The notes under the pieces are model-generated. The model did no database searches and was not told the origin of the DNA. It saw only the letters and a program-made list of their open reading frames with translations. The translations under genes and the position numbers were made by a program. Of a DNA stretch of 64,000 bases, positions 727-59,335 are shown piece after piece (position 1 is the first letter of the stretch; every line of letters begins with the position of its first letter). Location: assembly GCA_036172245.1 (NCBI GenBank), contig JAYWIR010000063.1:1-64000 (forward strand), given 5' to 3'. This stretch comes from Raillietiella orientalis. Taxonomy: Eukaryota.

Positions 727-2369
727 AAAGCACACCAAGGTACTTCAAGTAACTTGGTGTGCCTTTGGAGCACTAGTCCCTTGCGAAAGTGTCGTAAGGC
801 TGCCTCCAAAAAGTAGAGACGGCGATCGTCCCGTTCCGAGGAGGCAGGTTTTTCCTGCCTGAACGGAACGTGGTTGGGAATACGTTCTCGGCTCCTCTTC
901 TCCGCCCTCTGCTGTTTGTTTGCTTTTCTGCAAAGAGGATGAAAAAGCGGACGAAGCACATTCTCTGTATCGTCCTTTGGGGCAACGGGAGGTCCCGAGT
1001 ACGCTTAAAGGACTTGTGCGTTCCGCGTAGGGACGGTGGTCTCAGCCTCCTGACAATGGAGCGGCTGGAGCTTCAGTTCCAGTTCTGGGTAATAGCCATT
1101 CTACTGGAGTTGTGGTGCACCTGCTGGTGCGTCCCTGCACGTCTCCTTCTCCAGCAAGCCACCGGGAAGACGGGACTCACGTTTTTTCTTGCACTCCGCC
1201 GCTACGTAAACCGATGCGGACTTCAGTTACGGAGGGTGGCTGCGCTGACATGGAGAACAAATGGATTATTCACCTGTCGCCCTGCGAACGGTAGTGATTA
1301 GTTGCAGGAAGACGTTTCCACGTGGAAACAGTGCGGCATGCAATGCCGGCAGAAGGTGCGACGGTTCATGTTTGGGGGATACAGCAGCTGCCCGTTCCTT
1401 GAGATCCTGGAGGATCCGAAGAAGCGAGCGTGGCCAGGAAGAACCCCCCGCGCTGCTGCGCTGGACACTCTAATGGAAGATCAGGACAGCGATGTTGCGG
1501 CGAAGTAGGAGGTTACAATAAAAATTTGCGGAAAGGAGAAGAAGATAGAAGAGTGAAAGACGGGTCAGCTGACTAATGCTGCTTCTCCGAGTACGCCTCT
1601 CCATGGACTCCTGCGTTGGGGCGCGCTGCTTGACGTACCCATGGAACGTCTGAATTAGCCCCTGGTATCCATTAAAACCTCCATTCTTCCGTTAAAATGG
1701 CAGGAGTCGTCTCTCCTGTTGCAGCACTTGGGACTGCCCTTCAACGCCCGCCGACACCACTGGACCTGGGAAGCGGTAGACCCCAATCGCGTCAGATGTT
1801 AAGAACGGGAGTCCCTCCCCCACCTGCTTGTGGATTGTGTTGCCCTTCGGCCTCTTTGGTTCCGCTTTGCCGCGGCCATCCGAATCCCCTGAGGCAACCC
1901 CAGGGAAGCTTCAAAAGCCCTCTTCGTCGCCGACGCCCTCCGGCCAGCGGCCTCGATAGCGGCCTTGTGCTGCCTTCGCGGGATCGTCGCTGCATGTAGC
2001 ACGGCTACGGGAGAACAACGCGACCAGGGTTGCATCCATCCAGCCTCACAATTCTTGAGGAGGGCGTAAAAATGGTCCCACCTGGATCCGGGAATGCATA
2101 AGGAGCTCTTTGGCATCCTGGAAAGGATGCCACGGCCCTACCAGCAACTGTGATGCCGTCCCGTACTTTCCTACTTTACTTTTCTTTTTGTTTGTTTTTT
2201 GTTTTGTCCCCCTTCAGCCGGCTGCCGTTGTGGACCGTACCGGTCTGCGAACCGGTGACCCGGCAAGCTCGGTGTTTCTTAATGCGGGGCTGGAGCATTT
2301 GTCTAGCCACTGCACGTCTTTGTAAAAGTTTATTAAACAATAAACGCCATGGCGAAATCCGGGTGAAAA
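727..2369 (+). mobile_element. 5'-truncated, decayed K-lineage LINE (copy K0): late RT, CCHC region, 3' UTR
   Basis: YFK*LGV, RRDGGL and WQESSLLLQH motifs; stop at 2151-2153; 3' UTR homologous to K1; AATAAA at 2339-2344 followed by the terminal hairpin. Confidence 0.9.
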
Positions 2370-2640
2370 TCGAATGCCCTGTGGAGTTCGACCGCGATTG
2401 CCAGGACCCCCTTCCCCGCCCGGGTTCCATTCCTAGCCCAGCTGACGGCCTCAAAGTGGGGTTGTTAATCGTTGTCTTCATTTTTAGCATAGTATTGTTG
2501 CACATGAAATCATGTGAGCGCGAAGAACAGGTTGGCATATAGACTTTGCCCAGGAACAGTGTATGTCTCCTCGGGGCTAATTATGGAATTGGTCACCTGC
2601 CCCAGACGCAAAGACCACAGTCCGGCGATCAGCTTGGCGT
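2370..2640 (-). pseudogene. RT fragment (DAK to HRAFD) of a host LINE, cut on both sides by insertions
   Basis: Minus strand reads AKLIAGLWSLRLGQVTNSIISPEETYTVPGQSLYANLFFA ... VLAIAVELHRAFD. Confidence 0.9.
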
Positions 2641-4439
2641 GCGGACGTGTTTTTTCCGCGCTCCTCCTAGCCTGTTGTGAAGCCTTGTTTTTTGTAAGTG
2701 ATTGTGTGTGGTGCGTCTGCGGTGTCCAATGGCAGGAATGCCTGAGGACACCGCTATGGAGATAGGAGGGGGAGAGGCTTGCTCCTCTCCCCAACCTATA
2801 GAGGTGGGTGCAACCACCCCCACGGAGACGCGGGCAACCGCCCCATTGAAAAAGGGGCCAACCTCCCCGTTGGAAACGAGGGCTACCGTTCCCTTGGAAA
2901 AAGGGGGGACAGCCACCCTGGAAACAGTCGCAAGCGCTTCCTTGAAAAAGGGGGAAACCGCGTCAGCGGACTCATCGTCGCCGAAGACGAAGTCATACAG
3001 TGCCGTGGCTGCTGCACCATCCCCTGAAGCTATGGCGGAGCAAAATGTCCACCGGGACCAAGGATATAAGCCGTCCTTGTTCTATAAGGTAGGCAATTTA
3101 TTTGTAGGAAATACCGCTAGCAACTTTGAGCGAGAGTTGCAGCGGTTAAACGTAAAGGAGGAGGACCTGGAAGGACTTTCCGTTACGAGCGGGGGTCAGC
3201 GGGTGGAGCTGAATTGCAAAGATGCAAGCCTGGCTCAGAGCCTGCTTAATACCACCATCACGCTGGAAGGCCGAAAGGTTTTCAAGGTAACAAAGAATCG
3301 ATCCATTATGGAGCACCTCACCGGTACTTCTCTCCGCATGTCCAAAACTGGCGTGCAGGAAGAGCTGGCAAAATACGGTACGGTGCACGCCCTCTGGACC
3401 AAGCCGAACGTCTTCCGAACTCATGTAAGACTGTTCAGCGGTATGGCCGCAGCACGAGTGACCGTCCACGAAAACGGTGGGCTACCCCACAAGCTGGACG
3501 TCGGCAACCAGACGGTCGACGTCTGGTACGTGGGCAAGCCAAAGAACTGTGGGAACTGTAATGCGACAGGGCACCTGAAAAAACGTTCCCCTCACATCCA
3601 GTGCCTCCACTACGGAGAGAAGGGCCACCTCAGGAAAGTGTACCCAAAGCGGGAACCTCTTGCACCCTCTGCCTGGAAAAAAGGTAAGGAGAAGCGCTTA
3701 TAGAAAGCGCGTAAGGACAATGAGGCAACAGAACGGCAAAGCCAAAAGCTTGTGCTCGAACCCTCGTAGCAAACCCCGCTCCACAAAACTCCCGACGACG
3801 CTGGTGAGAACGAGGGCTGGCGGACGGCGGAGCCCCCCCAAAAACAAAAGAGAACCGAAGGTTCGACAGCGGAACCCGCGACAACTCCTGTAAATAGGAG
3901 GCAAAGCGGCGCTTTGCTCCGCGAATGTTCGGTTGCCTTGCAGCGAGTGGGGATCTCGGAAACCTCCACCGGGAGAGACATCCTCCGCCTCGTTGACCCC
4001 GAAGCCGCGATCATGGAAGGCAAACCCTCTGTGCAAACAGAGGGGGAGCCGAACGACGCGGTGGCCGCGATCGAGGACGTCGCCTTCCAGCAGGCGGCGG
4101 AAGAGCTCGCAGAAAAACTAGCGGAACGCGAGAACGGCGCGCGAAAGGCCTTGCAAAGGCCGGCCGCGAGCAAGGCACCTCCGACAGGTGACCGCGATCC
4201 GAATGGCCGGAGTGCGTCCTCCTCCGCGGAGGCGTCTCCGAAAAAGACTGGACGGAAGTCCAAAAATCCGGAAAAGCGCATACCGACGAAGAAGGAGGGG
4301 GACGCACCGGCAGCCGAGGGGGAAACCGGCAGCGTGGGAATAGAGGGAGCGATTTTCCTACCCTGCGCTGCCGAGCAGCTGGCCACCCTCATAAAGGTGA
4401 GGGATCAGGTAGGACATTGCCACCCCCTGCCACCGCCGG
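2641..4439 (+). mobile_element. D-lineage LINE 5' part (copy D1); ORF1 pseudogene from ATG 2729
   Basis: 5' motif GCGGACGTGTTTTTT; ORF1 MAGMPEDTAMEIGGGE; degenerate knuckles CGNCNATGHLKKRS; in-frame stops at 3701 and ~3767. Confidence 0.9.
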
Positions 4440-4784: not shown

Positions 4785-5526
4785 ACCTTTCCGAATTTAC
4801 TCAATTCCTCATTTACACCGGTTTTCGACATTCGGAGGGTTACTCCCGTAAGATGCGCTACCACAGAGCGATCCTCGGTTATCGGGAAGAACCTTCTGCC
4901 TTCCAGCATAAGAAGGGTATTCAGAAGGCGCTGAGCCAAGCTTGCATCTTTGCAAGTTAGCTCCACCTGCTGACCTCCACTGAGCACTGAAAGACCTTCC
5001 AAGTCCTCCTCTCTTGCATCTAACCGCTAAAACTCCCTCTAAAAGTTGCGGGCGGTATTGACCACAAACAGATTTCCTACCTTGTAAATCAAGGACGGCT
5101 TGTATCCTTGTTCAAGGAAGCCGCGTTGTTCTGCTAAGGCTGCAGGAGATGGCGCTGCAGCCACGGAGCTCCAGGTCTTCGTGAATGGCGCAGACGGATC
5201 CAAAGACGCGGTTGCCCCCTTTTTCAAGGGGGCGGTAGCGCCCTTTTCCAAGGCGGCGGTTGTCCCCTTTTTCAAGAGGGCGGTTGCAACGTTTTGCACG
5301 AGGGGGGTTGCCCCCTTTTACAAGGATGTCGTTGCCCTCTCCTTCGTGGGGCAGTTGCCCTCACCTCAATGGGTTGGGGAGAGGAACAATCCTCTCCCCC
5401 GCCGACTTCCATTGCGATGTCCTCAGGCATTTCTGCCATTAACAACGCAGATGCACCACACACAAACACTAAAGAAAAGGAACCCTTCACAACAGGCGCA
5501 GAGGAGCCCGCAAAAAACACGTCTGC
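4784..5526 (-). mobile_element. D-lineage LINE 5' fragment (copy D2), ORF1 from ATG 5439
   Basis: GCAGACGTGTTTTTT 5' motif; MAEMPEDIAMEVGGGED; ATAPLKKG repeats. Confidence 0.9.
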
Positions 5527-6015
5527 ACGCCAAGCTGCTTGCCGGGCTATGGGCTTTGCGTCTGGGGCAGGTGGCAGAATCCATAATTAGCCCGGAGCAC
5601 ACATATGCTGTTCCCGGGCGAAGTATGGATGCCAACCTCTTCTTCACGAGCACATGGATGCACGCGCAGAGGTGTAAGAAGAAAGTGAAATGAAGAATCG
5701 GCAATTCCACTTTGAAGCCGCCAGCAAGTCAGAAAAGGGACTCCAGGGCGGGGAAGAAGGCCGCAGCGCTCGCAGTCGATCTCCATAAGGCGTTCGATTT
5801 TCACCCGGATTTTGCCGGGGCGTTTATTGTAAAATAAACATTTACAAAGACGTGCGGTGGCTGGACCATTGCTCCAGCCACGCACGAAGAAACACAGAGC
5901 CTGCCGGGTCACCGGTTCGCGGACCGGTACGGTCCACCACGGCAGCAGGGGGGAGGGGGAAAAACAAAAAACAAAACAAAAAAGAAAAGAAAAGTTGGGA
6001 GGGTAAGGGAAGGGA

Positions 6016-9000
6016 TCACAGTTGCTGGTGGGGCCGTTGCATCCTTTGCAGGATGCCGGCAAGCTCCTTCTGTATTCCTGGATCCAGGTGAGGCCATCGG
6101 GACGCCCTCCTCAGGTACTGGGAGGCTGGCTGGATGGCACCCTGGTCGCGTTGCCCTCCCTAGGCCTTGCCCCAAGCGGTGACGATCCCGCGTAGGCAGC
6201 ACAAAGCTGCTAACGAGGCCGCTGGCCGAAGGGCGTCGGCAACGAAGAGGGCTTTCAGTGCGTCCCTGGGATTGCCGCAGGGGATTCCGATGGCCGCGTC
6301 AAAGCGAAACCAAAGGGGACGAAGGGCAACACAATCCACTAGCAGGTGGGGGAGCGACTCCCGTTCCCCACACCTGACGCAATTGGGGTCCACCGCTCCC
6401 CAGGTCCAGTGGTGTCGGCGGGCGTTGCAGGGGAGTCCCCAGTGCTGCAACAGGAGAGCCGACTCCTGCCATTTTAAGGGGAGGGCGGAAGTGTTCATGA
6501 GCACCGCGGGCCACTTCAGATGTTCAATGGGAACATCGAGCAGCGCGCCCCAGCGCAGAAGTCCATTGGGAGGCGTACTCGGGGTCGCAGCGTCTGTTAA
6601 CTGGCTTGTCTTCCACTCTCCTATCTTCTTCTCCTTTCCGGAGATTGTTACTGTAACCACCCACTTCGCCGCAACATCGCTGTCCAGATCTTCCATCAGG
6701 GAGGGCAGCGCAGCAGCGAGGGGGGTTCTTCCTGCCCACGCTCTCTTCTTTGGATCCTCCAGAATCTCGCGGAGCGTGCAACTTCTGTAACCCCCAAACA
6801 GGAACCTTCGTTCCTGTTGGGAGCGTTGCATGCCGAACTGTCACCACGTTCGAACGGTTTCCTGCAACCAGGCATTACCGATAAACGGGCGACAGGTGAG
6901 CAATCCTGGGTTTTTCCGATACACCGCAGCCACCCTCCGTAGCTGGAGTCCGCATCGGTTGACGCGGCGACGGAGTGCAAGAAACGACGTCAGTCCCGTC
7001 TTGCCGGTGGCTTCCTGGAGGAGACGTGCAGGGACGCAACAACAGGTGCACCACAACTCTGGAACGAGTGCCGACAAGCGGAACTGGAGCTGAAGCTTCA
7101 GCCGCTCCAGCGTCAGGAGGCCCAAACCACCATCCCGACGAGGAGCGCACAAGTCCTTTAATTACACTCGGGCCCTCCCGTTGCCCCAAAGGGCGATACG
7201 GAGGAGGTCCTTTGTCCGCTTTTTAATTCTCTCTGTGGGGGGGCAAACAAATATCAGGGGGCGGAGGAGAGGAGCCGCGAACGTGTTCCAAACCGCGGCC
7301 CGTTCAGGCAGAAAAAACCTCCCGCCTCCGAACGGGCCGATCGCCGTCTCTACTTTTTGGAGGCAGCCGGACCACGCTTCCGCAGGGGAGTAGTCCCCCA
7401 ACGGAACACCAAGGTACTTGAAGTACCTCACCGTGGGGATCCCCAAACGGACCCAGTCCTGCTGCCCTGCCCACGCCGCACCAACTGGCATCACGGACGA
7501 CTTCGCCCTGTTCACCGTAAGTCCGGTTCCCCGATGCAGCAGGTCGAAGAACTCCTCGACCGCCGCAGCCGGAGTGGACATAGGGAGCAGCAGCAGAAGG
7601 TCGTCCGCTTATGATGAAACGGCCGGCGTACCGGCACAGTCGTGCGGCAGGTGCGCCAGAGTTCCCCTGTACGCTCTCAGTACCAACTCAAAGTAGGTAC
7701 TGAAGAGCAAGGGGCTCAGGCTGTCTCCCTGCCGGATCCCACGCCGCACCGGCACGCCGTGCACGGTCTGCCCGCTGAAAGTAACATTGATGAGCGCGTC
7801 GCGCCAGCAGGAGCGCAGATAGGCCACTAATGAGGCCGGGAAGCCCAAGCGTTCAGAAGCTCCAGAAGGAGATTCTGGTCGACGCAATCGAATGCTTTTC
7901 GCAAGTCGATTGCGACCGCAAGGGCTCCCTCCCCCACCCGACCATCCAACCCCTTGCCGGCGCACGCACCGGAATTCCGGCTGCGCACCAAGCTCCTTTC
8001 ATGTTGGAGCTCTAGCCAGGTGGAAGCGTGGAACAGGTTCGCCTCCATGCTTCGCCCGGGAACAGCATATGTTTGTTCCGGGCTGATGAAGATGTTGGCA
8101 GCCCGTCCCAACGTCCCTGCCCAAACTTTAGCCAGCAACTTGGCGTCCGCATTCACTATTGTGATGGTACACCAGTTGTTCATGCTCCTCGGCTATCCTC
8201 CATTAGGGAGGAGCCGCACCTTTGCCGAACGAAACGAGGCGGGAACGTCACCTGTTTCGCGTATCAGCAAGGTGAGTTGCTGTACCAGGGGAGTAAGCTC
8301 AGCCGCGAAAGTTTGATAAAACTCCGCGGGCAGGCTGTCCTCCCCTGGAGCCTTGCGCCTCTTGAGCTTTCCGATGGCCGAGAGGATCTCGTCCATCGTG
8401 AAAGGCTCGTCGAGGGTCTTTCTCTGCTCCTCCCCGATCGCTGGAGCGCCTTCCAGAAGCAGGAGTCGTGAGACGTTCCTCTCCGGAGGTGCCCTGGCAT
8501 ACAGGGAGGAGTAGTAACTCCGCAGCAGGCCGCGGATTTGGGCAGGTGCCGAGTGCTCCTGGCCCTGATCGTCCAGTAAGCTGGCCGATCCGGACTGCCA
8601 GGCTTGCCTCTCGGCTCCCGCTTTGTATTCCGCCAGCCTGCGGATGTCGGGGGTCCTGGCGTAACGACGGGCCTGCAGGTGGGCTCGTTCGTTACGGTCC
8701 CCGGTCCCAAAACCCGTGGGTAGGCGGTGCAGAGGGAACTGGTCGCAGAACTCCTGGACCGACCGCTTGAAGCGGTCCCAATCCTGGAGTGTCCGCAGCC
8801 TGAAGCTCCGTATGAACGTGCGGAGATGTTCCGCCGCGTCTGGGAGCTTCAGCCAGTCCCCTGGGAGACGCCACGCTGACGAGGGGGGGCCCCTGTCGCG
8901 CGGATGGATCTCGAGGACTAGCGGGCGATGGTCGGACAGCTCGCACGGTAACTTGCCGCGCCTGCCCACGCGAGGGCACAGGTGCTCGTCAAGAAACACG

Positions 9001-9593
9001 TGGTCAATGCTGTCTTCCATCCCCGGTGCACTGGCCAACAGATTACAGGTGTGCACCGCTATGCACACCTCGTTGACCAGGTCACGCTCGGGATTCTGCT
9101 CATCTGGTTTCAGGCGAACGTTGAAATCGCCTGCAACCAGATGGGCATTCCGCACGCCTGCTTCGGTCAGCCAGTCTCGCCGGAGGGCAAGGAAAAACTC
9201 TTTCCTCGCCCTCCTGTTCATCAGGTCCTTGCCGCTCGGTGCGTACACGTTCGTGACGATCAGATCGATCGATTCGGACCACCTGAGAGTCAGCTGGCCG
9301 ACACGACCGTGATCGTCGAACCGCACGCCCCGAGCCGCGGCCTCGACGGCTGGCCGAAGCAGGTAGGCGACACCGCAACTTTTCTCTCTCCCACACCTGT
9401 ACCATAGCCGCCCTCCGGAGATCCGTTCGATCTCTTGCGCTTGTTCTGCAGAGATCACGTGGATCTCCTGCAGCAGCGCAAGGTCGTAGGACTCCAGAAG
9501 GGCGGCCATGTCTCGACTCCTGCCGGCGTCTGTCATGCCGTTCACGTTCCAAACGGCGATGCGCAGACGACGGCGGGAGGAGATTCCCGGCAT
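6016..9593 (-). pseudogene. K1 ORF2: AP endonuclease + RT + CCHC, disrupted
   Basis: WNVNG, QEIH, NVYAP, AGDFN, IDHV, SDH; KAPGED; PEQTYAVPGRS; DLRKAFD; GIRQGDSLSP; (Y>*)ADD; YLGV; CVRCGE..PHLLVDC. Stops at 8193, 7609, 7162, 6841, 6160 and a frameshift near 7853. Confidence 0.95.
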
Positions 9594-9607
9594 TACTGCT
9601 GGGAAGA

Positions 9608-11269
9608 TTAAGGTGTGGGGGAGCCCTCCTCTTTCGAGGCGGGCGGGATGTCCATGGGGGTTTCGGCCTTCTCAGGCACCTGAGGCACCTGTTCGGCCTC
9701 CACCCCCTCCATCCCCTCCGTGTCCGTGCGTGGGAGTCTCTCGGGCGACGGGTCCCGAGAGTTTCCCACGCTCATGGCACCCTCGCTTGCGGAAGCCATC
9801 TCTTCCCCTTCGACGGGGGAGACGAGCTTCCTTGGCTTTGTGGACTTACGTCCAGCCTTCTTGCGCGGTGCCGTGAAAACGGAGGCTGCGCTTCCGGACT
9901 CCACCTCGGGGTCGGAAGTGGGGGACTCCTGAGGGGAGGCCGGAGGCCTTACGGCCTTCTTGCCAGCCTTGGAGGGTTCTGGCTGCAACGAGGCTGCCAG
10001 CTCCTCCGCGGCTCGCGCGAAGGCTACGTCATCGATGGTGGTGTCGATGACGGACGCCGCCGCCGGCTCGCTCCCCTCGCTGTTGACTGTGTCAACAGAG
10101 GGGAGGTCGTCGGTAGCGGCGAGTTCTTTCCGGCAGCGTTCCGCAACATCGAGAACGCGTTCGACAACGACGCTGCACTCTTTAATTATCGCGCTACCCT
10201 GCTCTTTCTTCTTCTGTTGGTAGGCGATTTTCTTTTCCATCCTCCTCTCCTTCTTTGATTTTTTGGCCGTTGCCACTTCCCACCCAGTCTCCTGGCCGGC
10301 TCCCTTAACTTTTTCGGGGTTGGACGCCGAAGTCTCGGGTGCGGCCTGGGTCTTGGGCGCGGGTGGCACAGCCTTCGCGGCAGCTTTCGCCGCCAGTCTT
10401 TTCTGCAGAAGCCGGGCGCGTTTTTTAAGGTTTCTCTTAGAAACCACCCGCACTGCTGCTTTTGGGCACACCTCCCTCGTGTGGTCCATTGTGCCGCATA
10501 CTTGGCACTGCACATTGGGACACCTCTTTTTGAGGTGGTCCGACGTATTGCAGAAGCCACAGTATTTCGGCTTCCCCACATACCAGAGGTCGACGATTTC
10601 GCCTTCGACCACCAGTTTGTGGGGAAGAGTGCAGCCCTCCCGAACGGTCACGCGCGCAGCAGTGAGGCCGTGTTGCAGCCCCGTGTAGTCCTCGAAAGGA
10701 CTAACTTTCGTCCACTGCGCGTGGACCGTTCCGTATTCCTCCAGCGCGGCGCAAACCTGTGCCTTGCGCATCCGCGCGTTAACACCTAACAGGTGGACCA
10801 CCATGCTGCGGTCCGCCGTAATAGGGAGGAGCCTGCGCGTCTTCATCACCACGGGGGTTTTAAGGAGTCGTTGGGCCATCTCTGCTTGTTTGCAGATGAC
10901 CTCAACGTACTGACCCCCGCTGCGGATGGTCATAGCGCTGAGCTCCTCCTCTTTCACATCGAGAGCGCGCATGCCCTTCGAGAAGGCGCGCGCGCTCTCT
11001 AAAGAATATAAATTGCCTACCTTGTAGAACAATGAGGGGTTGTACCCCTCCTCCACATAGGCCGACAATTCCGCCGCGGCTGCAGGCGATGGCGCCGACA
11101 CAACGGCGCTCCACGCCCGCTCTGCAGCGGGGACCGATTCTGTGGGGGCGGATGCCCCCACCTCCATCGCCTCTGGGGGCGACGTTGCCGCCGCCCCCTG
11201 GCTCTCCATCGCCTCTGGGGGCGGCGTTGCCGCTGCCCCCTGGCCATTCCTGGTGATCGCGTCAGGCAT
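9608..11269 (-). CDS. K1 ORF1: gag-like nucleic-acid-binding protein with two CCHC zinc knuckles
   Basis: Open frame MPDAITRNGQ...; CGFCNTSDHLKKRC and CQVCGTMDHTREVC. The stop lies 5 codons before the conserved SQQ* end. Confidence 0.85.
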   Translation of the reverse strand: MPDAITRNGQGAAATPPPEAMESQGAAATSPPEAMEVGASAPTESVPAAERAWSAVVSAPSPAAAAELSAYVEEGYNPSLFYKVGNLYSLESARAFSKGMRALDVKEEELSAMTIRSGGQYVEVICKQAEMAQRLLKTPVVMKTRRLLPITADRSMVVHLLGVNARMRKAQVCAALEEYGTVHAQWTKVSPFEDYTGLQHGLTAARVTVREGCTLPHKLVVEGEIVDLWYVGKPKYCGFCNTSDHLKKRCPNVQCQVCGTMDHTREVCPKAAVRVVSKRNLKKRARLLQKRLAAKAAAKAVPPAPKTQAAPETSASNPEKVKGAGQETGWEVATAKKSKKERRMEKKIAYQQKKKEQGSAIIKECSVVVERVLDVAERCRKELAATDDLPSVDTVNSEGSEPAAASVIDTTIDDVAFARAAEELAASLQPEPSKAGKKAVRPPASPQESPTSDPEVESGSAASVFTAPRKKAGRKSTKPRKLVSPVEGEEMASASEGAMSVGNSRDPSPERLPRTDTEGMEGVEAEQVPQVPEKAETPMDIPPASKEEGSPTP

Positions 11270-13469
11270 CGCTGCCTGATCGACCACCGAACCACACGAC
11301 GCTTGCACTGGAGGAGACTTCCTGGCACGAGGAGCACCGAGAAAACACGTCCACCCTGGAGCGCACAAGGCGTTCGACTGTGTTGACCAGGAGCTTTTGT
11401 TGGAGCTCCTAAGTCGCATGGGCTTCCCACCCTCCTTGATCACCTACCTGCGCTCTTGCTGGCGGAATGCAATTATCTGCATCTTTTTTAGCAGTCAGAA
11501 GGTGTATGGCGTGCCGGTGCGGCGGGGCATCAGGCACGGCGATAGCCTGAGTCCCCTGCTCTTAAGCACCTACTTTGAGTTGGAGCTGAGAGCATATAGG
11601 GTGACTTTGTCCTCCTTGCCGAGCTCGTGACGCGGCACGCCTGTTGTAGCAGCCTATGCCGACGACCTTCTGCTCCTCATACCTATGTCCACCCCGGCGA
11701 AGGCGGTTGGAGATTTCTTCGATCTGCTCAGCCGTGGGACCGGACTGCAGGTCAACAGGGCGAAGTCGACGGTGGTGCCAGTAGGTGCGGCGTAGGCAGG
11801 GCAGCAGGACTGGGTCCGTCTGGGAATCACCACGACGAGGTGCCTCAAGTACCTTGGTGTGCCGTTGGGGGACTACTCCCCTGCGGAAGCGTGGTCCAGC
11901 TGCCTTCAAAAAGTTGAGACGGCGATCGGCCCGTTCCTGGAAGGCAAGTTTCACTTGCCGGAACGGGCCGCGGTTTGGAACGCCTTCGCGGCCCCCATCC
12001 TCCGTCCCTTGCTTTTTGTTTGCCCCGCCCCCGTGGAATCAAAAAAGCGGACGAAGGACCTCCTCCGCATAGCTCTTTGGGGCAAGGGGAGGCCCCGACT
12101 CCCTTTGAAGGACTTGTGCGCTCCGCGTCGGGACGGCGGTCTCAGCATCCTGACGCTGGAGCGCGTGGAAATCCAGCTGCGATGGCGGATCCTTGCCATC
12201 GCAGCGAAGATGTGGAGCACGCCTTGGTGCATTCCGGCCAGCCTCCTTGCAAGGCGTGTGTCCCGGTGCGAGGGACTTTCGTCTTTTCTTCTGTGCTTCG
12301 GCCGGAAGATCAGAAGTTGCGGCCTACTGCTCGGGAGTATGGCAACCCTGGCTATGGAGAACGGCTGGATGGTTTGTAGCCATGCCAACTTCTCCGCCTG
12401 GCTGAAGGAGACTGCTGGCACCTGGGCTAAGATAAACCAGAGGAGTGAAGACCCCATGAATTGCCTGCGTGTCGGTCCATACGCCCGAGGCACCCTGCGG
12501 GAATTACTTGAATTTCCCGCTGGTTGCATGTGGGCAGAGACGACCATCCTTGCTAAAGCGATGCCCTACCTCCGGAGGACTCTTAGCGGCAGCCAGAAGC
12601 CGAGGTGGCAACTCTCCTGTTGAATCGCTGGCAGTGAGAAGATGTTAAGCGGATGGACCACAGCAGAACTGGCGGACGCCACGACACCGATCTTCCAGCC
12701 GAAAGGAATTTTGCGATGGGGCGAGCTGCTCGCTATCCCCATGGATTTGCTGAAGTGGCCCCCGGTGTTGTTCGAGTCAAGGATCCTGCCCCTTACGTGG
12801 CAAGAATCGGCTCTGCTACTATTGCACTGGGGTTTATTCTGCAACGCACGCCGCTTCCACTGGACGAGGGGAGCTGTGGATCCTGCGTGTGTCAGGTGTG
12901 GGGAGCGGAAATTCCTCCCCCACCTTATTTTGAACTGTGCTGCCCTCCGACCCCTTTGGGAACGGTTCGGGACGACCCTCGGTCTCCAAACGGGCAGTAC
13001 CCCCAGAGACGTTCTCCAGCTCCTCTTCGTTTAAGACGCCCTGCAGCCAGCCGCAGCCCTCGCAGCTCTTTGCTGCGTCCGAGGCATCGTGGCGGCCTGG
13101 AGCGACCCAACAGCGAAGTCCGGGACACAAACGAGAGGGAAGTCATCCCGTATGCTGTCAGCTTCATGCGGAGAGCTGCGAGATGGCCCCAACTGGGAAG
13201 TATGCAGATGGACCTCGAGGGCTTCATTGGAAGGATGGGCCCTCCCCAAAGCGAACAGTGATCCCTTTCCTTCCCTCCAACTTCTTTTGGTTTGTTTCTT
13301 TTTATTTTTCTTTTTGTTTTATTCCCTACCTCCCTTTCCCTCCCAGGGAGTGCCCCGCCGGGCTGCGTCCCGGTGTCCCGCCAGGTACTGTGTCCATGGC
13401 CGTGGTGGGGCCTTGTACCACGCATTGTAGAGTTTATCAATAAACGTCCCTGGCGTACCCGGGTGACAA

Positions 13470-15858
13470 CACCGAATCCTTTCGGGAGACGGTTCATGGG
13501 GAACTGCTGGCAGAACTCTCGGACTGAGACTTTCAAATCGTCCCAGTCGTCGAGCGTCCTCAGGCTGAAACCTCGTAAGAACGCGCGCATGTTTTCTGCT
13601 GCGCCTGGCTTGGTCAGCCAGTCCCCCAATAGACGACACGCGTGCGAGTGGGGACCCCTGTCTCGCGGGTGAATGATGAATTCTACACGGGAGTGGTCGG
13701 AGACAGCGGACTGTAACTTACCTCGGCTGCCCACACGACAGCGCAGGTGATCGTCGAGGAAGATGTGATCCACGTTTCGCTCCATCACGGCATCTCCGGC
13801 CAACAAGTTGGATGCGTGCACCGTAGTGCACAACTCGTTAACCGGGGTGGCCTTTGTCCTCGCCGGACTTGATAGCAGGCGAATATTGAAATCGCCGGCT
13901 ATCAGGTGCGCTGTGCGTGCGCCTGCCTCCGACAGCTAGACGCGCTTGAACGCACAGAAGAATGCCGTCCGTGCCACGCGCGCGTGACCGCCGCTCTGCG
14001 CGTACTACGACCTGTCTGGTCGAAACTAACTTTCCGCACCGTGCGTTCTAAAGCAGGCTTCAGAAGGAAAGCGAGCCTGCGCGTACAGAGGTGGTCGCAT
14101 CGCCACATAAGCTGACCCCGTGCTATCCTCTCGATCTTTCGCGCATGTTCTGCAGAGATCTGATGGATCTCCTGCAGAAGCACGAGGTCGAAGGCTTGCA
14201 AGGTGGCAGCTATGTCTCGTCTCCTGCCGTCATCGCAAAGCCCGTTGACGTTCCAACTGGCGATGCGGATTTGACGGAATGTGGCGTGTCCCGGCATTAC
14301 TGCTGGGAAAGTGATGCAGCTTCTCCCGCTTCCCTATCGGGCGGGATGCTTTCTTTTTCCTCTGCGGTGGAGAGAGCCTGGACGATCCCCTCCGCCTACA
14401 TCGGCTCCGTCTCGACCGGGCGTGGGAGTTCAGGACTCGTGTCCATTTCTCCCACGCTCGCCGCACCCTCGTTTTCGGAGGATTCCCCTTCCTCGGAGGA
14501 GGCGATCCTCCTCGGGTTACGGATTTTCCGTCCGGTCTTCCTCGGGGGTGCAGACGCCGATGGTTCGTGTCCGGCCTCCGGGTCCGAGTCCGAGGTCCCG
14601 GGCCCCCTCCTTTCGGCCGGACGTCGCACGGCGTTCTTCCCGCCCTTTGCGAGTGGTGACGGAACGGCGGCGGCGAGCTCAGCGGCGTCTTTCGCAAAGT
14701 CAGCGTCAACGCGGCTCTCCCCATCGCCGCAGCCCTCGGCCGCTGTTTGCACAGCGACGGGGCTGTCAGCGTTGTTGCACACGGCAACAGACTGTTCACA
14801 CGGCACTTCGGCGTCTGTATGACGCTCCAGTGCGATCGTGCATTTCTTCAGTCCCTGCTTTTTGGCGGGTTTCGCGGTTTTTGCGGGGACTTTATTCTTC
14901 TTTTTTAAATTTTCTCTTCTATTCCTTACCTTTTGCCAGTCAAACTCTTCTCCTTCCACCCCGGTTGCTTGTGTTTCCGCAGAAGGGGTGGTCGGCGTGT
15001 CCTTTTCAGCTGGCTCCGGGTCAACCTTTTTTTCAGCCTTTTTTTACTTGCGGCAGGTGATGTTGGGGCAGCGTTTCTTCACGTGCCCCGTAGCATCACA
15101 GAATGCGCAGTATTTGGGTTTCCTCAGATACCAGATGTCGACAGTATCTCCGCTGACAACCAGTTTGTGGGGAATCATAACGTCCTTTGCAACCGTGATG
15201 TGCGCAGCTGCAAGCCCGCTTAGAAGTCCGTCATAAGTACGGAGTCTGCTGGGCTTCGCCCACAGTGCGTGCACGGTGCCGAATTTGCTCAATGAAGCCC
15301 TGACGGCACTCGCGGACATCCTTAGGGTGATTTCGCGGAGGTGGACAACTATTGAGTTGTCCACCGGGACAGGGAAGATCTGGCGGCCTTCGATCCTAAC
15401 GAGGGTTCGCAGCAGTCTTTGTGCCAACCCTGCTTCTTTGCAGGTGAGCTCGAATTGCTGCCCCCTGCTGCGGATGGAGAGACCCAGCAGATCCTCCTTC
15501 TTAACATTCAAACGGTGCCGCTCCTGCTCAAAGGAGCGCGCCACACGATCATCGAACACCCGGCCTACCTTATACAGCAGGCTCGGATTGTAATTGTAGG
15601 CCTTGTAGGCCTGGACCTCGGCCATGGCCGCTGCAGATGTCCCGGCGACCACGGCTCTGTAGTCCCTCGCTGGCGCGGGAGACGAAGCTTTCGGGGCAGG
15701 TGCACCCACCTACATGGGGACGGGTAACGTTCGACCGTCGCTCCCCCCCCACATTCACTAGTGGCGGGATCAGGCATTTCTGCCATCCTCCGACCACTGA
15801 TTTACTGCACTACACCACTACACACGGGCGAGTCAGGAGCGCGTGAGGTACACTTCCG
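13470..15858 (-). mobile_element. S-lineage LINE 5' half: ORF1 (15786-14297, disrupted) and EN (14297-13470)
   Basis: MAEMPDPATSEC; CAFCDATGHVKKRC; TAATG overlap at 14295-14299; WNVNG, QEIH, GDFN, SDH; ends at FPMNRLPKGFG. Confidence 0.9.
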
Positions 15859-18785: not shown

Positions 18786-18789
18786 CGCT

Positions 18790-38299: not shown

Positions 38300-38308
38300 A
38301 TTTCAATC

Positions 38309-51332: not shown

Positions 51333-52163
51333 TTCCGTAACGAAAGAGCGTACTTGTATGCCCGTCGTTACGCAAGGAACCCCAATGTCCGTCGCCTGGC
51401 AGAGTACCGAGCGGGGGCCGAACGTCAAGCCTGGCAATCCGGGTCGGCCAGCTTGCTGGACGACCAGAGCCGGGAGCACTCGGCTCGGGCTAGAATACGG
51501 CACCTCGTGAGGCGTTTTTATTCCTCCCTTTACGCCAGGGCTCCCCCGGACCAAGATGCCTCTCGGCGCTTCCTTCCGAACGGTGCCCCGGCAATAGATG
51601 AGGAGGAGAAACAAAGCCTCGACGAGCCTTTTACCACCGGCGAAATTCTCGCCGGTATTAAAAGGCTCAAGAGGCTGAAAGCATCAGGGGAGGACGGCCT
51701 TCCTGCGGAGTTTTCTCAATGCTTTGCGGCAGAGTTGGCACCCCTGATGCTTGAGTTGACAAGGCTGATCCGAGATGAAAGCAATGTACCCGCCTCGTTT
51801 CGGTCAGCCAGAGTGACGCTCCTTCCGAAAGGAGGAGACCTCAGGAAACTCAGCAACTGGAGTCCGATCACAATTGTGAATACGGAAGCCAAACTGATCG
51901 CCGGACTGTGGGCTTCGCGTCTGGCCCGGAGCGCAGGTGGCCAATTCCATAATTAGCCCGAAGAAGACTTACGCTGTTCCTGGGCGAAGTATGGAGGCCA
52001 ACCTCTTCTTCGCAAGCACATGGTTTCATGTGCAGAGTAGTAAAGAAATCCAAGACGGAGCGATTGGCAGCCTTGCTTTGGGGGCGTCAGCCGGGCAGGG
52101 ACAGGACTCCCAGGGGGGGAATTGAGCCCTAACGATCGCAATCGATCTGCATAAAGCGTTTGA
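51333..52163 (+). pseudogene. Host ORF2 fragment (RNER to HKAFD)
   Basis: RNERAYLYARR...WSPITIVNTEAKLIAGLW...YAVPGRSMEAN...IDLHKAFD. Confidence 0.9.
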
Positions 52164-55100
52164 TTTTTACCCGGATTTCGCCGGGGCGTTTATTGTAAAA
52201 GAAACATTTACAAAGACGTGCGGTGGCAGGACCATTGCTCCAGCCACGCACGAAGAAACCCAGAGCCTGCCGGGTCCCCGTCTCAGGACCGGTACGGTCC
52301 ACCACGGCAGCAGGGGGAAGGGGGAAAAACAAAAAACAAAACAAAAAAGAAAAGAAAAGTTGGGAGGGTAAGGGAAGGGATCACCGTTGCTGGTGGGGCC
52401 GTTGCATCCTTTGCAGGATGCCGGCAAGCTCCTTCTGTATTCCTGGATCCAGGTGGAGCCATCGAACGCCCTCCTCAGGAAATGGGAGGCTGGCTGGATG
52501 GCACCCTGGTCGCGTTGTCCTCCCGTAGCCTTGCTCCAAGCGGTGACGATCCCGCGTAGGCAGCACAAAGCTGCTAACGAGGCCGCTGGCCGAAGGGCGT
52601 CGGCAACGAAGAGGGCTTTCAGTGCGTCCCTGGGGTTGCCGCAGGGGATTCCGATGGCCGCGTCAAAGCGAAACCAAAGATGACGAAGGGCAACACAATC
52701 CACTAGCAGGTGGGGGAGCGACTCCCGTTCCCCACACCTGACGCAATTGGGGTCCACCGCTCCCCAGGTCCAGTTGTGTCGGCGGGCGTTGCAGGGGAGT
52801 CCCCAGTGCTGCAACAGGAGAGCCGACTCCTGCCATTTTAAGGGGAGGGCGGAAGTGTTCATGAGCACCGGGGGCCACTTCAGATGTTCAAAGGGAACAT
52901 CGAGCAGCGCGCCCCAGCGCAGAAGTCCATTGGGAGGCGTACTCGGGGTCGCAGCGTCTGTTAACTGGCCCGTCTTTGACTCTCCTTTCTTCTTCTTCTT
53001 TCCGGCGATTGTTACTGTAACCACCCACTTCGCCGCAACATCGCTGTTTAGATCTTTTATCAGGGAGAGCAGCGCAGCAGCGAGGGGGGTTCTTCCTGCC
53101 CACGCTCTCTTCTTTGGATCCTCCAGGAACTCGGGGAGCGTGCAACTTCTGTAACCCCCAAACAGGAACCTTCGTTCCTGTTGGGAGCGTTGCATGCCGA
53201 ACTGTCACCACGTTCGAACGGTTTCCTGCAACCAGGCATTACCGATAAACGGGCGACAGGTGAGCAATCCTGGGTTTTTCCGATACACCGCAGCCACCCT
53301 CCGTAGCTGGAGTCCGCATCGGTTGACGCGGCGACGGAGTGCAAGAAACGACGTCAGTCCCGTCTTGCCGGTGGCTTCCTGGAGGAGACGTGCAGGGACG
53401 CAACAACAGGTGCACCACAACTCTGGAACGAGTGCCGACAAGCGGAACTGGAGCTGAAGCTCCAGCCGCTCCAGCGTCAGAAGGCCCAGACAACCATCCC
53501 GACGAGGAGCGCACAAGTCCTTTAAGCACACTCGGGCCCTCCCGTTGCCCCAAAGGGCGATAAGGAGGAGGTCCTTTGTCCGCTTTTTAATTCTCTCTGT
53601 GGGGGGGCAAACAAATATCAGGGGGCGGAGGAGAGGAGCCGCGAACGTGTTCCAAACCGCGGCCCGTTCAGGCAGAAAAAACCTCCCGCCTCCGAACGGG
53701 CCGATCGCCGTCTCTACTTTTTGGAGGCAGCCGGACCACGCTTCCGCAGGGGAGTAGTCCCCCAACGGAACACCAAGGTACTTGAAGTACCTCACCGTGG
53801 GGATCCCCAAACGGACCCAGTCCTGCTGCCCTGCCCACGCCGCACCAACTGGCATCACGGACGACTTCGCCCTGTTCACCGTAAGTCCGGTTCCCCGATG
53901 CAGCAGGTCGAAGAACTCCTCGACCGCCGCAGCCGGGGTGGACATAGGGAGCAGCAGCAGAAGGTCGTCCGCGTATGCTGAAACGGCCGGCGTACCGGCA
54001 CAGTCGTGCGGCAGGTGCGCCACAGTTCCCCTGTACGCTCTCAGTACCAACTCAAAGTAGGTACTGAAGAGCAAGGGGCTCAGGCTGTCTCTCTGCCGGA
54101 TCCCACGCCGCACCGGCACGCCGTGCACGGTCTGCCCGCTGAAAGTAACATTGATGAGCGCGTCGCGCCAGCAGGAGCGCAGATAGGTTACTAATGAGGC
54201 CGGGAAGCCCAAGCGTTCCAGAAGCTCCAGAAGGAGATTCTGGTCGACGTAATCGAATGCTTTTCGCAAGTCGATTGCGACCGCAAGGGCTCCCTCCCCC
54301 ACCCGACCATCCAACCCCTTGCCGGCGCACGCACCGGAATTCCGGCTGCGCACCAAGCTCCTTTCATGTTGGAGCTCTAGCCAGGTGGAAGCGTGGAACA
54401 GGTTCGCCTCCATGCTTCGCCCGGGAACAGCATATGTTTGTTCCGGACTGATGAAGATGTTGGCAGCCCGTCCCAACGTCCCTGCCCACATCTTCGCTAT
54501 CAACTTGGCGTCCGCATTCACTATTGTGATGGTACGCCAGTTGTTCATGCTCCTCGGCTCTCCTCCCTTAGGGAGGAGCCGCACCTTTGCCGAACGAAAC
54601 GAGGCGGGAACGTCACCTGTTTCGCGTATCAGCAAGGTGAGTTGCTGTACCAGGGGAGTAAGCTCAGCCGCGAAAGTTTGATAAAACTCCGCGGGCAGGC
54701 CGTCCTCCCCTGGAGCCTTTCGCCTCTTGAGCTTTCCGATGGCCGAGAGGATCTCGTCCATCGTGAAAGGCTCGTCGAGGGTCTTTCTCTGCTCCTCCCC
54801 GATCGCTGGAGCGCCTTCCGGAAGCAGGAGTCGTGAGACGTTCCTCTCCGGAGGTGCCCTGGCATACAGGGAGGAGTAGTAACTCCGCAGCAGGCCGCGG
54901 ATTTGGGCAGGTGCCGAGTGCTCCTGGCCCTGATCGTCCAGTAAGCTGGCCGATCCGGACTGCCAGGCTTGCCTCTCGGCTCCCGCTTTGTATTCCGCCA
55001 GCCTGCGGATGTCGGGGGTACTGGCGTAACGACGTGCCTGCAGATAGCATCGTTTGTTACGGACCCCGGTCCCAAAACCCGTAGGTAGGCGGTGCAGAGG

Positions 55101-57955
55101 GAACTGGTCGCAGAACTCCTGGACCGACCGCTTGAAGCGGTCCCAATCCTGGAGTGTCCGCAGCCTGAAGCTCCGTATGAACGTGCGGAGATGTTCCGCC
55201 GCGTCTGGGAGCTTCAGCCAGTCCCCTGGGAGACGCCACGCTGACGAGGGGGGGCCCCTGTCGCGCGGATGGATCTCGAGGACTAGCGGGCGATGGTCGG
55301 ACAACTCGCACGGTAACTTGACGCGACTGCCCACGCGAGGGCACAGGTGCTCGTCAAGAAATACGTGGTCAATGCTGTCTTCAATCCCCGTTGCACTGGC
55401 CAACAAATTACAGGTGTGCACCGCCATGCAATCCTCGTTGACCAGGTCACGATCGGGTTTCTGCCCATCTGATTTCAGGCGAACGTTGAAATTTTTCACC
55501 CGGTCACGCTGGGACGTTTATTGACACAAACGAGCTGGAAGCAATTGTTTCCAGCTCTCGACTCTGAAAACATGCAGCGGAGATTCACCCCTGGCACGCA
55601 GGCCAGGAAAACGGAAGAACATGGACGACTGAGGGGAGTCCAAAAAAAAAAAAAATTTTAAATGGGAGGAGTGGGCCAGGGAACTTTGGTGTTGCTCCGC
55701 ACTTACCGGGAAACTCAAAAGTTCTAGCAACAAAAACTCTGCGGAGCGTATAGGGAAAAGGACGCGAGAACAAAAAAACCATTCAAAAATAAAATGAGGG
55801 CGGATCACCGATTTTGTCATTCTAAGCCGTTGCTGATCCGGCGATGGATACCGGTTAGCTCCTCCGTTGTGTCTTCATATAAGTGTCGCCACCCAGCTGC
55901 CGACCTGATGAAGTGAGCTGCCTTCCTGGTGACACAACGTTGCTGTCCAGTATTCTCCAGCACGTCTCGGACCGTGACGGTGGCGCGGATGCAACCAACA
56001 GTGGAAATCGTCGCAGCCATCGAAAGTCCTTGTGCATCGAAGAACCGTCGCAGCACCTCTCGAGCGGTTTCTCCTGTTGACGGGAGAGCTGCTGCTAGCC
56101 TCCTCCACAGTTCCTGGAGGGCACCGCAGTCCATAACAAGGTGCGGGAACGACTCCGTGGAACCGCACCGGGCACAGTAGGGAGAAGCCACCCCACCGGA
56201 AACTCGGTGGCGCCGCTCGCTGTAGCGCAATCCCCAGTGCAAGAAAAGCAAAACGTCTTGCTTCCATGCAAGGGGAAACACCGAACCGTCCAAACACTAG
56301 GGAGGGACTATAAGTTCTTCGGGGGCAACACCAAGAGCTTCTCCCCACCGAATAAACCCCTTTGGTGTAGCACGAGGAGTGGCGGCATCCGCAAGCTCGC
56401 TCGTGGACCATTCGCCAACTGGTTTTCTCTTTCTGCAGTGGTGCAGAACTCCCACCTTGCCGGCTGGCTACTGTCATGTCGAGCCTCGAGGGCAGACAGT
56501 GCTTCGGCAAGGGGGGTGGCGGCCATGTAGGAAAGCTTCATCTCGTCCTGCAAGACATCTTGGAGTGATCAAGGCTGGAATCGACGCAGGAGGCGTAGAT
56601 CTTCACGGCTTATTCCTAAGAATGCAGCCCACGAATCAATGAATTCCTGCTTCTAAGCATTACAGTTCATTGGGCGGCAGGTAATCCACGTACTGGCTTC
56701 CAATAGGGTGGCGATTTTCCTCAAAGGATAGCCAAATCCCTGTTTCCTGTGGCGCAAGCCAGGCACTAAAGAAAGTAGTCCTTGACTGCCTGCACACCTC
56801 CTCAGGAGGATGCGCGCAGGCGCACACAGGGGGGAAGTCCATAGCTCGGCACTAAGTGTGAGCATTCGGAACTGCACTTGCAGTCCGATTCTCTCCATCG
56901 TCAGGATGCCAAGCCCAGCATCCCGACGTGGAGCAGTGAGGTCTTTCAGGCGGATCCTGGATCGCGCCGGACCCCAGAGAGCGTTCCTTAGCAGGCGTTT
57001 TGCCCTCTCTTTGGCCGCATAGGGGGGGTCCAAGACAAAAAAGTGTTGTCGGAGGAGGGGGGACACGAAGGTGTTTCAAATAGCCGCCCGTTCCGGCAAG
57101 GTGAACTTGCCGTTAATGAACGGGCTGGCGGCCAACTCGGCCTTATGAAGGCAGTCCGACCACGCCTCGGCAGCGCCGAGGTCGCCCAACGGAACGCCAA
57201 GGTATTTGAAGTACCCCGCCGTGGGAATCCCCAGGCGGATCCAGTCGGACTGCCCCTCCCACGACGGACCCACAGAAACGACCACGCTCTTCTTTCTGTT
57301 CGCGCTCACGCCCGCTCCCCGACGAATCAGGTCGAAGAAATCTTCGACTCTGGACGCCGGGGTGGACATGGGGAGCAGAAGAAGCGGGTCATCTGCATAG
57401 GAAGCCACGGCAGGCGTTCCCGGGCAAGAGCTAGGCAGGTATTCCAGCGTCAGCCTGTATGCTCTCTGCACCAACTCAAAGAAGATGCTGAAGAGCAATG
57501 GGCTTAAACTGTCACCCTGCCTGATGCCCCTGCGCCCGGGAATACCGTACACGTGGCAGCCGCTAAAACACAATGCAAGTTAGCGCGTGGCGCCAGCATG
57601 CGCTCAAGTACTTGAGGAGTTGAGCCGGGCGAACGTTGAAATCGCCTGAAACCAGATGGGCATTCCGCACGCCTGCTTCGGTCAGCCAGTCGCGCCGGAG
57701 GGCAAGGAAATACTCTTTCCTCGCCCTCCTGGTCATCAGGTACTTGCCGCTCGGTGCGTACACGTTCGTGACGATCAGATCGATCGAGTCGGACAACCTG
57801 AGAGTCAGCTGGCCCACACGACCGTGATCGTCGAACCGCACGCCCGAGCCGCGGCCTCGACGGCTGGCCGAAGCAGGTAGGCGACACCACAACTTTTTGC
57901 TCTCCCACACCTGTACCATAGCCGCCCTCCGGAGATCCGTTCGATCTCTTGCGCT
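52164..57955 (-). mobile_element. K-lineage LINE K2, split by N3 into 52164-55492 and 57628-57955; 5' part missing
   Basis: Near-identical to K1; 764-aa open EN-RT stretch at 53205-55499; AATAAA at 52189-52194. Confidence 0.95.
55493..57627 (-). mobile_element. 5'-truncated N-related LINE N3 with 15-bp TSD
   Basis: PAQLLKYL...GIRQGDSLSP...SYADD...CARCGSTESFPHLVMDC; GGCGAACGTTGAAAT at 55478-55492 and 57628-57642. Confidence 0.95.
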
Positions 57956-57959
57956 CGTA

Positions 57960-59335
57960 CAGTGCAGACGTGTTTTCGCGTCTATCCGCGCCAACGATCG
58001 GGCAACTTTGTGCCTGCGTTTTCGCTCGCACTTGTGTTCCTGTGCAATCTGCCAAGTAGCATAGTGCAACATGGCCAGTACACAGGATAGTGTGGAGGAG
58101 CAAGCCACTGGATGCACTTCAGCTGCACTTGAAGCAGCCGCATCCTCCGCAATGGTATCCTCGCCCCCGGTGAGGAGTTACTCCGCCGTTTCCTCCCAAA
58201 CACCAGGACCCTGCGATGCGGAGTTCCAGGCATATGTGTCATCAGGATACATGCCTGCACTCCGTTATAAGGTCAGTGGGCCCCTTCACGGGAGAATCGG
58301 ACATGAGCTCAATGATGAGCTCGTCCGGATCGGCGTTCGCAAGGAGGAACTCCTTGCCATAATGCCTGCTGGCAGAATGGAATATACGAAGATTCGGTGC
58401 AAGAACGCAGCACTTGTGCAGCGCCTTCTCCGTACGCCGTTGACCATCAATGGCAAGGAAGTCTTACCTACTGCGATGGACGACTCTTTTGTCTTTCAAT
58501 TGTGCGACATCGAACCGGAAATCTCCGACCGCGATGTGGTAAGCGTGCTGGCGAAGTTGGCCACCGTGCACGCCCTGTAAAGGAGGCCGAACCCTTTGAA
58601 GGATTTCTCCTCTGTCCACATCGGACAGGCCTCCGCGCGGATCACCGTCGCAAACAGGCGTGTTGTGTCTGAGCAGCTGCAGGTGAACGGCACGGTCGTC
58701 CACCTGTGGTTCATAGGCCAGACTCGCGGGTGCGAGCAGTGCGGCAAGGATGGGCACCGATTTAAAGTGCTTCTCTCAAAGATGCCGCTATTGCAAAGAT
58801 TCCGGGCACGAAATCAAAAAGTGCCCGATACTTGCAAGAAAAAGAGCCGCAGCGGAAATTCGTCGGGTTCAAGAGACCACTGCACGAAAAGCCGCAGCGG
58901 CAAATAAAAAACGTCGTCCGCAAAAACTCGGAAAAAACAACGAGCGATCTGCGGATGGAAGGAAAGCATTTCCGCCCGCAACGCCCCGAAAGGGGAAAGT
59001 CACAGCGGGGAAGCCAATTAAAAAGGGGCGCGAGGGTTTGACGCGTTCCGTGCCCTCCCTCGCTGCCGAACTCGCAGGCACCTCTCCGAGCCAGGAACCA
59101 GGAAATCTCCGTAACACCCTGGAGGGAAAGGTAGGAAAACAGGAAGATCGCAACAGTGCGAAGACTTCTTGCCCCGTTCCGTTGTCCCTTCCGAGTTCCG
59201 GACAGCCCCACTGCAGCGCAGGCCCCTCTGCAAAGGCTACGAAAGCCGTAAAAAGCAGCGTCGCGACGAGCAAAAGCACGCTGCATGCAGTCGCCCCATC
59301 GCCGACTCGGCAGGAGAGGAGCAATCTCCCGACTC
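57960..59335 (+). mobile_element. LINE A 5' fragment; ORF1 from ATG 58071 (N-like ORF1), disrupted
   Basis: GTGCAGACGTGTTTT; MASTQDSVEE; CEQCGKDGH, CRYCKDSGHEIKKC. Confidence 0.85.

Follow-up and report, generated by a model that had tools for sequence, protein, structure and literature searches.

Putative antisense, sequence-specific insertion of one LINE lineage into the reverse transcriptase codons of other LINEs in a Raillietiella orientalis contig

How does one lineage of retrotransposons come to lie, at one locus after another, at the same nucleotide of the enzyme gene of its relatives? The question is raised by the first 64,000 nucleotides of contig JAYWIR010000063.1 of Raillietiella orientalis (GenBank assembly GCA_036172245.1), hereafter the window, a 64-kb stretch of eukaryotic DNA that consists almost wholly of related long interspersed nuclear elements (LINEs) nested one in another. 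Three copies of one lineage, designated K and counted in this single window, end within the reverse transcriptase (RT) genes of other LINEs. The interpretation that we favor, with a probability of roughly 0.8, is that K is a LINE lineage with an apurinic-type endonuclease that inserts by target-primed reverse transcription, its target being the H-K-A-F-D codons in the RT of older LINE lineages other than its own, which it enters sequence-specifically and in antisense.

Junctions of the K elements

The K copies, their open reading frames (ORFs), the target site duplication (TSD) and the hosts are located as follows:

5798..11363, minus strand: K1, full-length K-lineage LINE of 5566 bp, both junctions readable
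11269-9608, minus strand: likely ORF1 of K1, starting at the first ATG inside the element, two CCHC knuckles by eye
from 9593, minus strand: ORF2 of K1, endonuclease domain first, RT and C-terminal parts broken by stops and frameshifts
5784..5797, plus strand: left TSD copy of K1, CATAAGGCGTTCGA, host codons H-K-A-F plus GA of Asp
11364..11377, plus strand: right TSD copy of K1, CACAAGGCGTTCGA, after which the host RT goes on with the C of the Asp codon and then CVDQELLLEL
5526..5797, plus strand: host H1, RT segment upstream of the K1 site, its left bound being the 5' end of an antisense LINE (J1)
11378..13471, plus strand: host H1, rest of ORF2 and 3' untranslated region, with its own tail type GGGTGACAACA
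52164..55492, minus strand: K2, 3' part, 97.1% identical to K1 over 3331 bp, with an open 740-amino-acid ORF2 frame at 53205-55427
57628..57965, minus strand: K2, continuation past a foreign insert, 95.3% identical to K1, cut at ~57965/57966 by the 5' end of a plus-strand LINE
51335..52163, plus strand: host H2, RT upstream of the K2 site, uninterrupted where H1 and H3 are interrupted
738..2369, plus strand: K3, 3' 1.6 kb of an older K-lineage copy, 82.3-82.6% identical to K1, its 5' boundary adjoining unrelated LINE sequence
2370..2641, minus strand: host H3, upstream RT segment (VELHRAFD at the site), limited by a further LINE (J3) whose 5' end has the conserved GACGTG from 2644

All K-lineage 3' ends present in the window (K1 at 5798, K2 at 52164, K3 at 2369) abut the same host base in the same orientation, and at each of the three loci an older LINE RT is interrupted by K, in antisense, at its H-K-A-F-D codons. 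With a slash marking the junction, the boundaries on the host sense strand read GCATTCGA/TTTTCACCCGG for K3 (host base 2370), GCGTTCGA/TTTTCACCCGG for K1 (host base 5797) and GCGTTTGA/TTTTTACCCGG for K2 (host base 52163), and untemplated bases are absent from the K junction. A previous reading of this DNA from its letters (hereafter the sequence-only reading) had proposed that the three 3' junctions share one register, and alignment confirmed this at 2370, 5797 and 52163. Scanning of the window with a LINE 3'-end motif gave 11 matches, nine of them real 3' ends, and the K tail occurs in exactly these three.

Any insertion into a window that is almost all LINE will land in a LINE, and it could be argued that K inserts broadly, that its copies survive or assemble preferentially in LINE nests and that the common base arose by coincidence or as an artefact of assembly. 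This account is extremely unlikely. Three of three K 3' ends lie at one base and in one orientation of a homologous unit of ~5.5 kb, an outcome with an estimated probability of ~1e-8 under random landing within LINEs, so that chance is no serious rival; the junction flanks, moreover, differ by 27% and thus do not represent one collapsed repeat.

Both sides of the insertion can be read at K1. Reading along the plus strand, one passes from host sequence ..GTCGATCTCCATAAGGCGTTCGA into the K1 3' end TTTTCACCCGG.. (..CCGGGTGAAAA on the K strand), so that the element terminus, GTGAAAA on its own strand, directly adjoins the left TSD copy. Beyond the K1 5' end, CACAAGGCGTTCGA appears again and is followed by the host continuation CTGTGTTGACCAG. 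The 14-bp duplication that had been noticed from the letters is indeed present at 5784-5797 and 11364-11377, with 13/14 bases alike in the two copies and different bases beyond both. Resumption of the host RT past K1, claimed in the same reading, is borne out by the colinearity of the host across the element: 5586-5642 corresponds to 3277-3333 of the K reference and 11367-12163 to 3466-4261, the translated frame running AVDLHKAFD and then CVDQELLLEL. Identity of H1 to the K reference is 78.8% in 11367-12163 and 67% in 12699-13393. The first 12 bases of the K1 5' end (CGCTCCAGGGTG) precede the conserved GACGTG start and resemble the sense R-T-L-Q-D-W codons, as seen in this single full-length K copy. 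At the other end of H1 (~13464-13500), the tail GGGTGACAACA of the host lineage meets a further LINE at its LPxGFG linker motif, in antisense.

The target motif can be placed on a known protein, since AIDLRKAFD of K2 lines up with SIDAEKAFD of human L1 ORF2p (residues 598-606, counted by hand in the alignment). According to the available text of PMC10830420, the catalytic triad of human L1 ORF2p is D600, D702 and D703, and F605 is the gate residue that excludes ribonucleotides. The TSD spans H-K-A-F and reaches two bases into the second Asp codon; from the L1 ORF2p alignment, it covers the equivalents of E602-F605 together with two bases of D606. The catalytic Asp codon is two codons upstream of the TSD. 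The sequence-only reading was thus exact in naming the HKAFD codons as the target, since the TSD covers H-K-A-F plus GA, and its statement that DxxKAFD holds the first catalytic Asp is correct if the whole motif is meant, the catalytic codon itself lying upstream of the TSD.

Independence of the insertions

A shared junction would also be expected if one ancestral composite of K in its host had been copied by segmental duplication, in which case the three junctions would go back to one insertion. Such a history predicts equal divergence of inserts and flanks. Over the first 1.6 kb, the K1 and K2 inserts are 97.0% identical (1580/1629 aligned bases; 95.9% in the first 272 bp), whereas their host flanks of 272 bp share 72.8% identity (193/265; Fisher p 3e-34 for insert versus flank), and the fall from 97% to 73% takes place exactly at the junction. 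In addition, a second antisense LINE abuts the K1 host with its 5' end and cuts it at 5525/5526, while the K2 host RT runs upstream to 51335 without this second insertion. The argument of the sequence-only reading, that near-identical K1 and K2 in clearly differing hosts speak for independent insertions, is therefore upheld, insert and flank not being equally similar. On these identities, K1 and K2 are two separate insertions from a recently active source and the duplication account is refuted for this pair; by the same measure, the inserts are much younger than the divergence among their hosts.

The case of K3 is less clear-cut. Its insert is 82.3% identical to K1 (1341/1629) and 82.1% to K2, with flanks at 73.1% and 73.9% (p 6e-4 and 2e-3, respectively). 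The K1 and K3 loci share a colinear composite, made of a piece of host RT and the 5' part of a second LINE, which can be aligned between 2367-3354 and 5800-4815 with 74% identity over 991 bp. This composite, which may go back to an old duplication or to separate hits on a shared second site, favors duplication, as does the grouping of the three hosts into one clade within the window, and some of the resemblance between the K1 and K3 loci may indeed be inherited from such an old duplication. Identity of the composite (73.9%, 726/982) is nevertheless below that of the K part (82.3%; Fisher p 5e-7), but the step loses some of its sharpness in windows of 200 bp. Most simply, the composite, or its two parts, would be older than both K insertions, and K3 is probably a third independent hit, less secure than K1 and K2. 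Duplication could explain at most K3 and one further copy, and this would need gene conversion of K halted exactly at the junction; as the explanation of the shared register it is, in our judgment, quite unlikely.

The expected host continuation was not found beyond the 5' side of K3, nor is a duplication readable for this copy. A 39-nucleotide near-palindrome (722-770) occurs at its 5' boundary, and to the left of this near-palindrome 578-719 shares 80-81% identity with the ORF1/ORF2 boundary in two elements, at 34290 and 40202.

Insertion machinery and landing sites of other lineages

The proteins encoded by K agree with site-specific, endonuclease-driven insertion. The K1 ORF at 8193-9593 matches Exo_endo_phos (PF03372) over residues 14-222 (E 1.2e-13; 51.7 bits against a cut-off of 24.5). 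Matches of K1 to RVT_1 (7827-8183; 17.2 bits, under the cut-off of 29.6) and zf-RVT (PF13966; 6160-6831; E 5.6e-5, 24.2 bits, under the cut-off of 27.5) are weak. The open frame of K2 (53205-55427) matches human L1 ORF2p structures (8c8j, 8uw3; E 3e-37, residues 161-522) and R2 proteins (1e-10 to 1e-13). K thus combines the features of an apurinic-endonuclease-type LINE of L1-like architecture, namely an N-terminal endonuclease in ORF2, a LINE-type RT and, at K1, a flanking TSD; and the mark of a sequence-specific LINE, independent insertions at one nucleotide of one target, is found within the window.

The insertion process can be tentatively reconstructed, with nick positions deduced from the junction geometry. 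Since the complementary DNA (cDNA) strand of K has plus-strand polarity in the window, the primer would be the host sense-strand 3' end ..GCGTTCGA, which places the first nick on that strand between A and C of the second Asp codon (GA^C; ..GCGTTCGA^C..). The 3' end so freed would prime cDNA synthesis on the K RNA, which ends ..CCGGGUGAAAA, and the second nick would fall on the other strand, 14 bp upstream. In R1, TRAS and Tx1-type elements target specificity is determined by the endonuclease, and by analogy with these the endonuclease domain of K may set its specificity. Transcripts reading through into the downstream UCGAACGCC might also pair with the nicked target and fix the register. Each K hit would destroy the RT of the host copy, and a conserved coding motif would constitute a target that host lineages could not easily mutate away.

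Recognition of the template may involve a feature common to all lineages. These share AATAAACG ~20 nucleotides before the 3' end and a terminal CCC-GG/CC-GGG hairpin sequence (9/9 aligned 3' ends), and a long poly(A) is absent from all nine LINE 3' ends. A hairpin structure is not established by this, given that the sequence is conserved without compensatory changes among the nine aligned 3' ends, but the conserved terminus hints at recognition of a specific RNA 3' end.

Pairing could also do without the enzyme. K might possess no site-specific endonuclease, its RNA, extended by read-through host sequence, being captured at breaks or nicks by pairing, or joined by template switching, so that homology fixes the register. 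In keeping with such capture, the flank is the same for every K copy, which would give read-through transcripts a stretch complementary to the target, and the junction lacks untemplated bases. Capture is at odds with the clean 14-bp TSD of K1, the signature of two staggered nicks, and with the full endonuclease domain encoded by K. Sister lineages in the window, described below, have equally exact but different sites in both orientations, which diverged endonuclease specificities fit better than random breaks do. Capture by homology is, on balance, unlikely.

Of the ten RT copies in the window with a retained KAFD position, K occupies three, and seven are empty:

within K1: the KAFD site of K1 itself
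within K2: the KAFD site of K2 itself
27539: empty KAFD site
36099: empty KAFD site
42016: empty KAFD site, with exactly the 14-mer of the right TSD copy of K1
46652: empty KAFD site
near 62085: empty KAFD site, degenerate

The site of K itself reads R-K-A-F-D, with T in place of C after the nick position in both copies. When nine RT copies were compared, the three hosts were found to be 73% identical pairwise, 57-65% identical to the K, e46 and e27 copies and 47-57% to the e42 and e36 copies.

Several of these observations weigh against sequence-specific homing of K into the RT motif. Occupancy is far from complete, with seven of the ten KAFD sites empty, and as the site at 42016 is empty in spite of its exact 14-mer, occupancy cannot be predicted from sequence alone. 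Among the nine RT copies compared, each of the three hosts has its closest relatives in the other two, on account of which K may prefer one host clade, or the clade may simply have been abundant. Only three K copies are available, all in one window, and both junctions are seen at K1 only, the 5' side of K2 being cut by another element and that of K3 meeting unrelated LINE sequence. The K1 and K3 loci share the 982-base composite of host and second insert at 74%, and the terminal bases of the K RNA have no complementarity to the primer end.

Site-specific landing appears to be a habit of the group, as other lineages in the window have repeated sites of their own. One of them is represented by the foreign insert of K2:

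55493..57627, minus strand: 5'-truncated LINE of another lineage inside K2, in sense orientation at the G-D-F-N-V-R codons of the K2 endonuclease

This insert is flanked by a 15-bp duplication, GGCGAACGTTGAAAT (55478-55492 and 57628-57642), and its last 11 bases (CCGGGTGAAAA) are identical to those of K. Two full-length LINEs, with 5' ends at ~32401 and ~38316, lie head to tail at one GDFN site (32385-32410 and 38290-38325). Both 5' ends are preceded by TTTCAATCGAG, and the 3' end of the first element, GGGTGATAAA, is followed by the same 11 bases, a pattern that would be expected from repeated hits on one site. In total, two 3' junctions and two 5' junctions occur at GDFN sites, one of the insertions having the 15-bp duplication.

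Two more sets of ends recur. Three full-length LINE 5' ends (2644, 5523 and 46903; GCG/GCA GACGTGTTTTT) adjoin CAGCTTGGCGT, the antisense of the RT codons N-A-D-A-K-L, in three different hosts (regions 2633-2650, 5517-5535 and 46892-46910), and seem to mark one more lineage with a fixed landing site. In a further lineage, two 3' ends (~16522 and ~44556; tails GGGTTTCAA and GGGTTCCAAG; regions ~16515-16560 and ~44520-44562) run into ..CTGGAGCGTGACG.., which corresponds to the R-T-L-Q-D-W region of ORF2 in antisense, in a register read only approximately. Given these fixed sites, lineage-specific choice of a site by protein is more plausible than capture at random breaks.

It is conceivable that the genome houses a guild of sister LINE lineages that share out each other's conserved coding motifs as homing sites, acting as mutual parasites, knocking out rival copies and forming LINE-only islands with little damage to host genes. 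The odds for such a guild seem to us about even. Under this proposal K may take KAFD, and the other lineages the GDFN codons, the N-A-D-A-K-L codons and linker motifs. Homing endonucleases offer a comparison, choosing codons of catalytic sites, which cannot mutate away.

The overall make-up of the window is that of nested LINE-in-LINE clusters, with insertion into existing LINE copies as its organisation. With K1 as reference, 36 matching stretches were obtained on both strands. Only ~17.3-25.2 kb has no LINE match, its guanine plus cytosine (GC) content being ~45% against 55-63% in the remainder, and no long open frame with clear identity was seen in this LINE-free part (~17300-25200). At 4790-4800, the 5' portions of two opposite-strand LINEs join at internal points of both ORF1s; there is no element end at this junction, which consequently looks like a rearrangement or deletion breakpoint.

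Comparison with known LINEs and significance

Relatives of these elements were also sought outside the window. The public run X1 contains 11% of the sampled words from the window. At 80% likeness, 128 of its contigs matched 5300-7300, all of them short and mostly less than 90% alike. None of the X1 contigs listed bridges the K1 3' junction, one contig of 357 bases spanning 5527-5797 and stopping 3 bases beyond. A 30-base pattern of the K 3' end gave 0 matches in metagenome contigs. The sole locus recovered by a protein-based metagenome scan (L001) proved to be an AT-rich LINE RT (37% GC) that is unrelated and does not match the window at the nucleotide level, and was discarded. Protein databases yielded 14 matches, the best 72% identical and from a metagenome contig, the rest at 27% or less and generic LINE RTs, and an Atlas search returned RVT_1 clusters only.

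Site-specific LINEs are known for ribosomal RNA (rRNA) genes, small RNA genes, microsatellites, telomeres, DNA transposons and long terminal repeat (LTR) elements, and self-nesting LINEs are known in algae and fungi. Zepp, an algal element of the latter kind, ends in a long poly(A). R1 and R2 of arthropod 28S ribosomal DNA resemble K in their base-exact insertion into a conserved multicopy target, but this target is a host rRNA gene and not the enzyme gene of a mobile element. The specificity of R1 is set by its apurinic-type endonuclease.

The Tx1 clade, as described in the available text of PMC4494074, comes close in habit, consisting of endonuclease-type LINEs that occupy fixed places in multicopy sequences, transposons included, with family-specific targets in either orientation. 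Among the targets given there are the piggyBac element Tx1D for Tx1, Mariner-N4_AMi for Tx1-Mar and LTR retrotransposons for Tx1-8_Crp and Tx1-4_AMi; Keno, of the same clade, inserts in U2 small nuclear RNA genes, and microsatellites are also used (PMC4494074). Unlike those of K, the targets covered by that text are DNA transposons, LTR elements, small RNA genes and microsatellites, not LINE genes (PMC4494074).

The setting of K is closer to that of Zepp (Coccomyxa/Chlorella) and the Zepp-like L1 of Chlamydomonas, which, in the portions available of PMC8226300, PMC3446292 and PMC9940879, insert into copies already present and, in green algae, mark putative centromeres. They have in common with the LINEs of the window their L1 type, insertion into existing copies and nested GC-rich clusters made of LINEs only. 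Zepp, however, nests in itself, building 3'-end arrays, and the portions available mention no fixed nucleotide, coding-motif target or cross-lineage targeting. K lies antisense to its host, inserts into other lineages and has GTGAAAA at its end where Zepp has a long poly(A). As described here, K resembles Tx1 and Zepp in insertion habit. Cnl1 of Cryptococcus is likewise a LINE that prefers its own copies and forms nested arrays, but these are tandem in the same orientation, near telomeres and of its own family in the available text of PMC9942834, whereas K is antisense, in other lineages and at an RT motif.

LINE homing into a conserved coding or RT motif of other LINEs was not found in the literature searched, which comprised few subscription journals, no Repbase Reports and no supplements. 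K very probably behaves as a target-specific LINE with an endonuclease of the apurinic type, directed at a new target.

If the interpretation holds, base-exact homing into the catalytic-motif codons of the RT of other LINEs would be a new kind of LINE target and a direct interference between transposon lineages. It would provide a simple sequence-level account of how LINE-only islands, which mark the centromeres of some algae, assemble themselves. Sister lineages with apparently diverged specificities on short, defined targets would, in turn, constitute a natural series for the study of how apurinic-type endonucleases read DNA.

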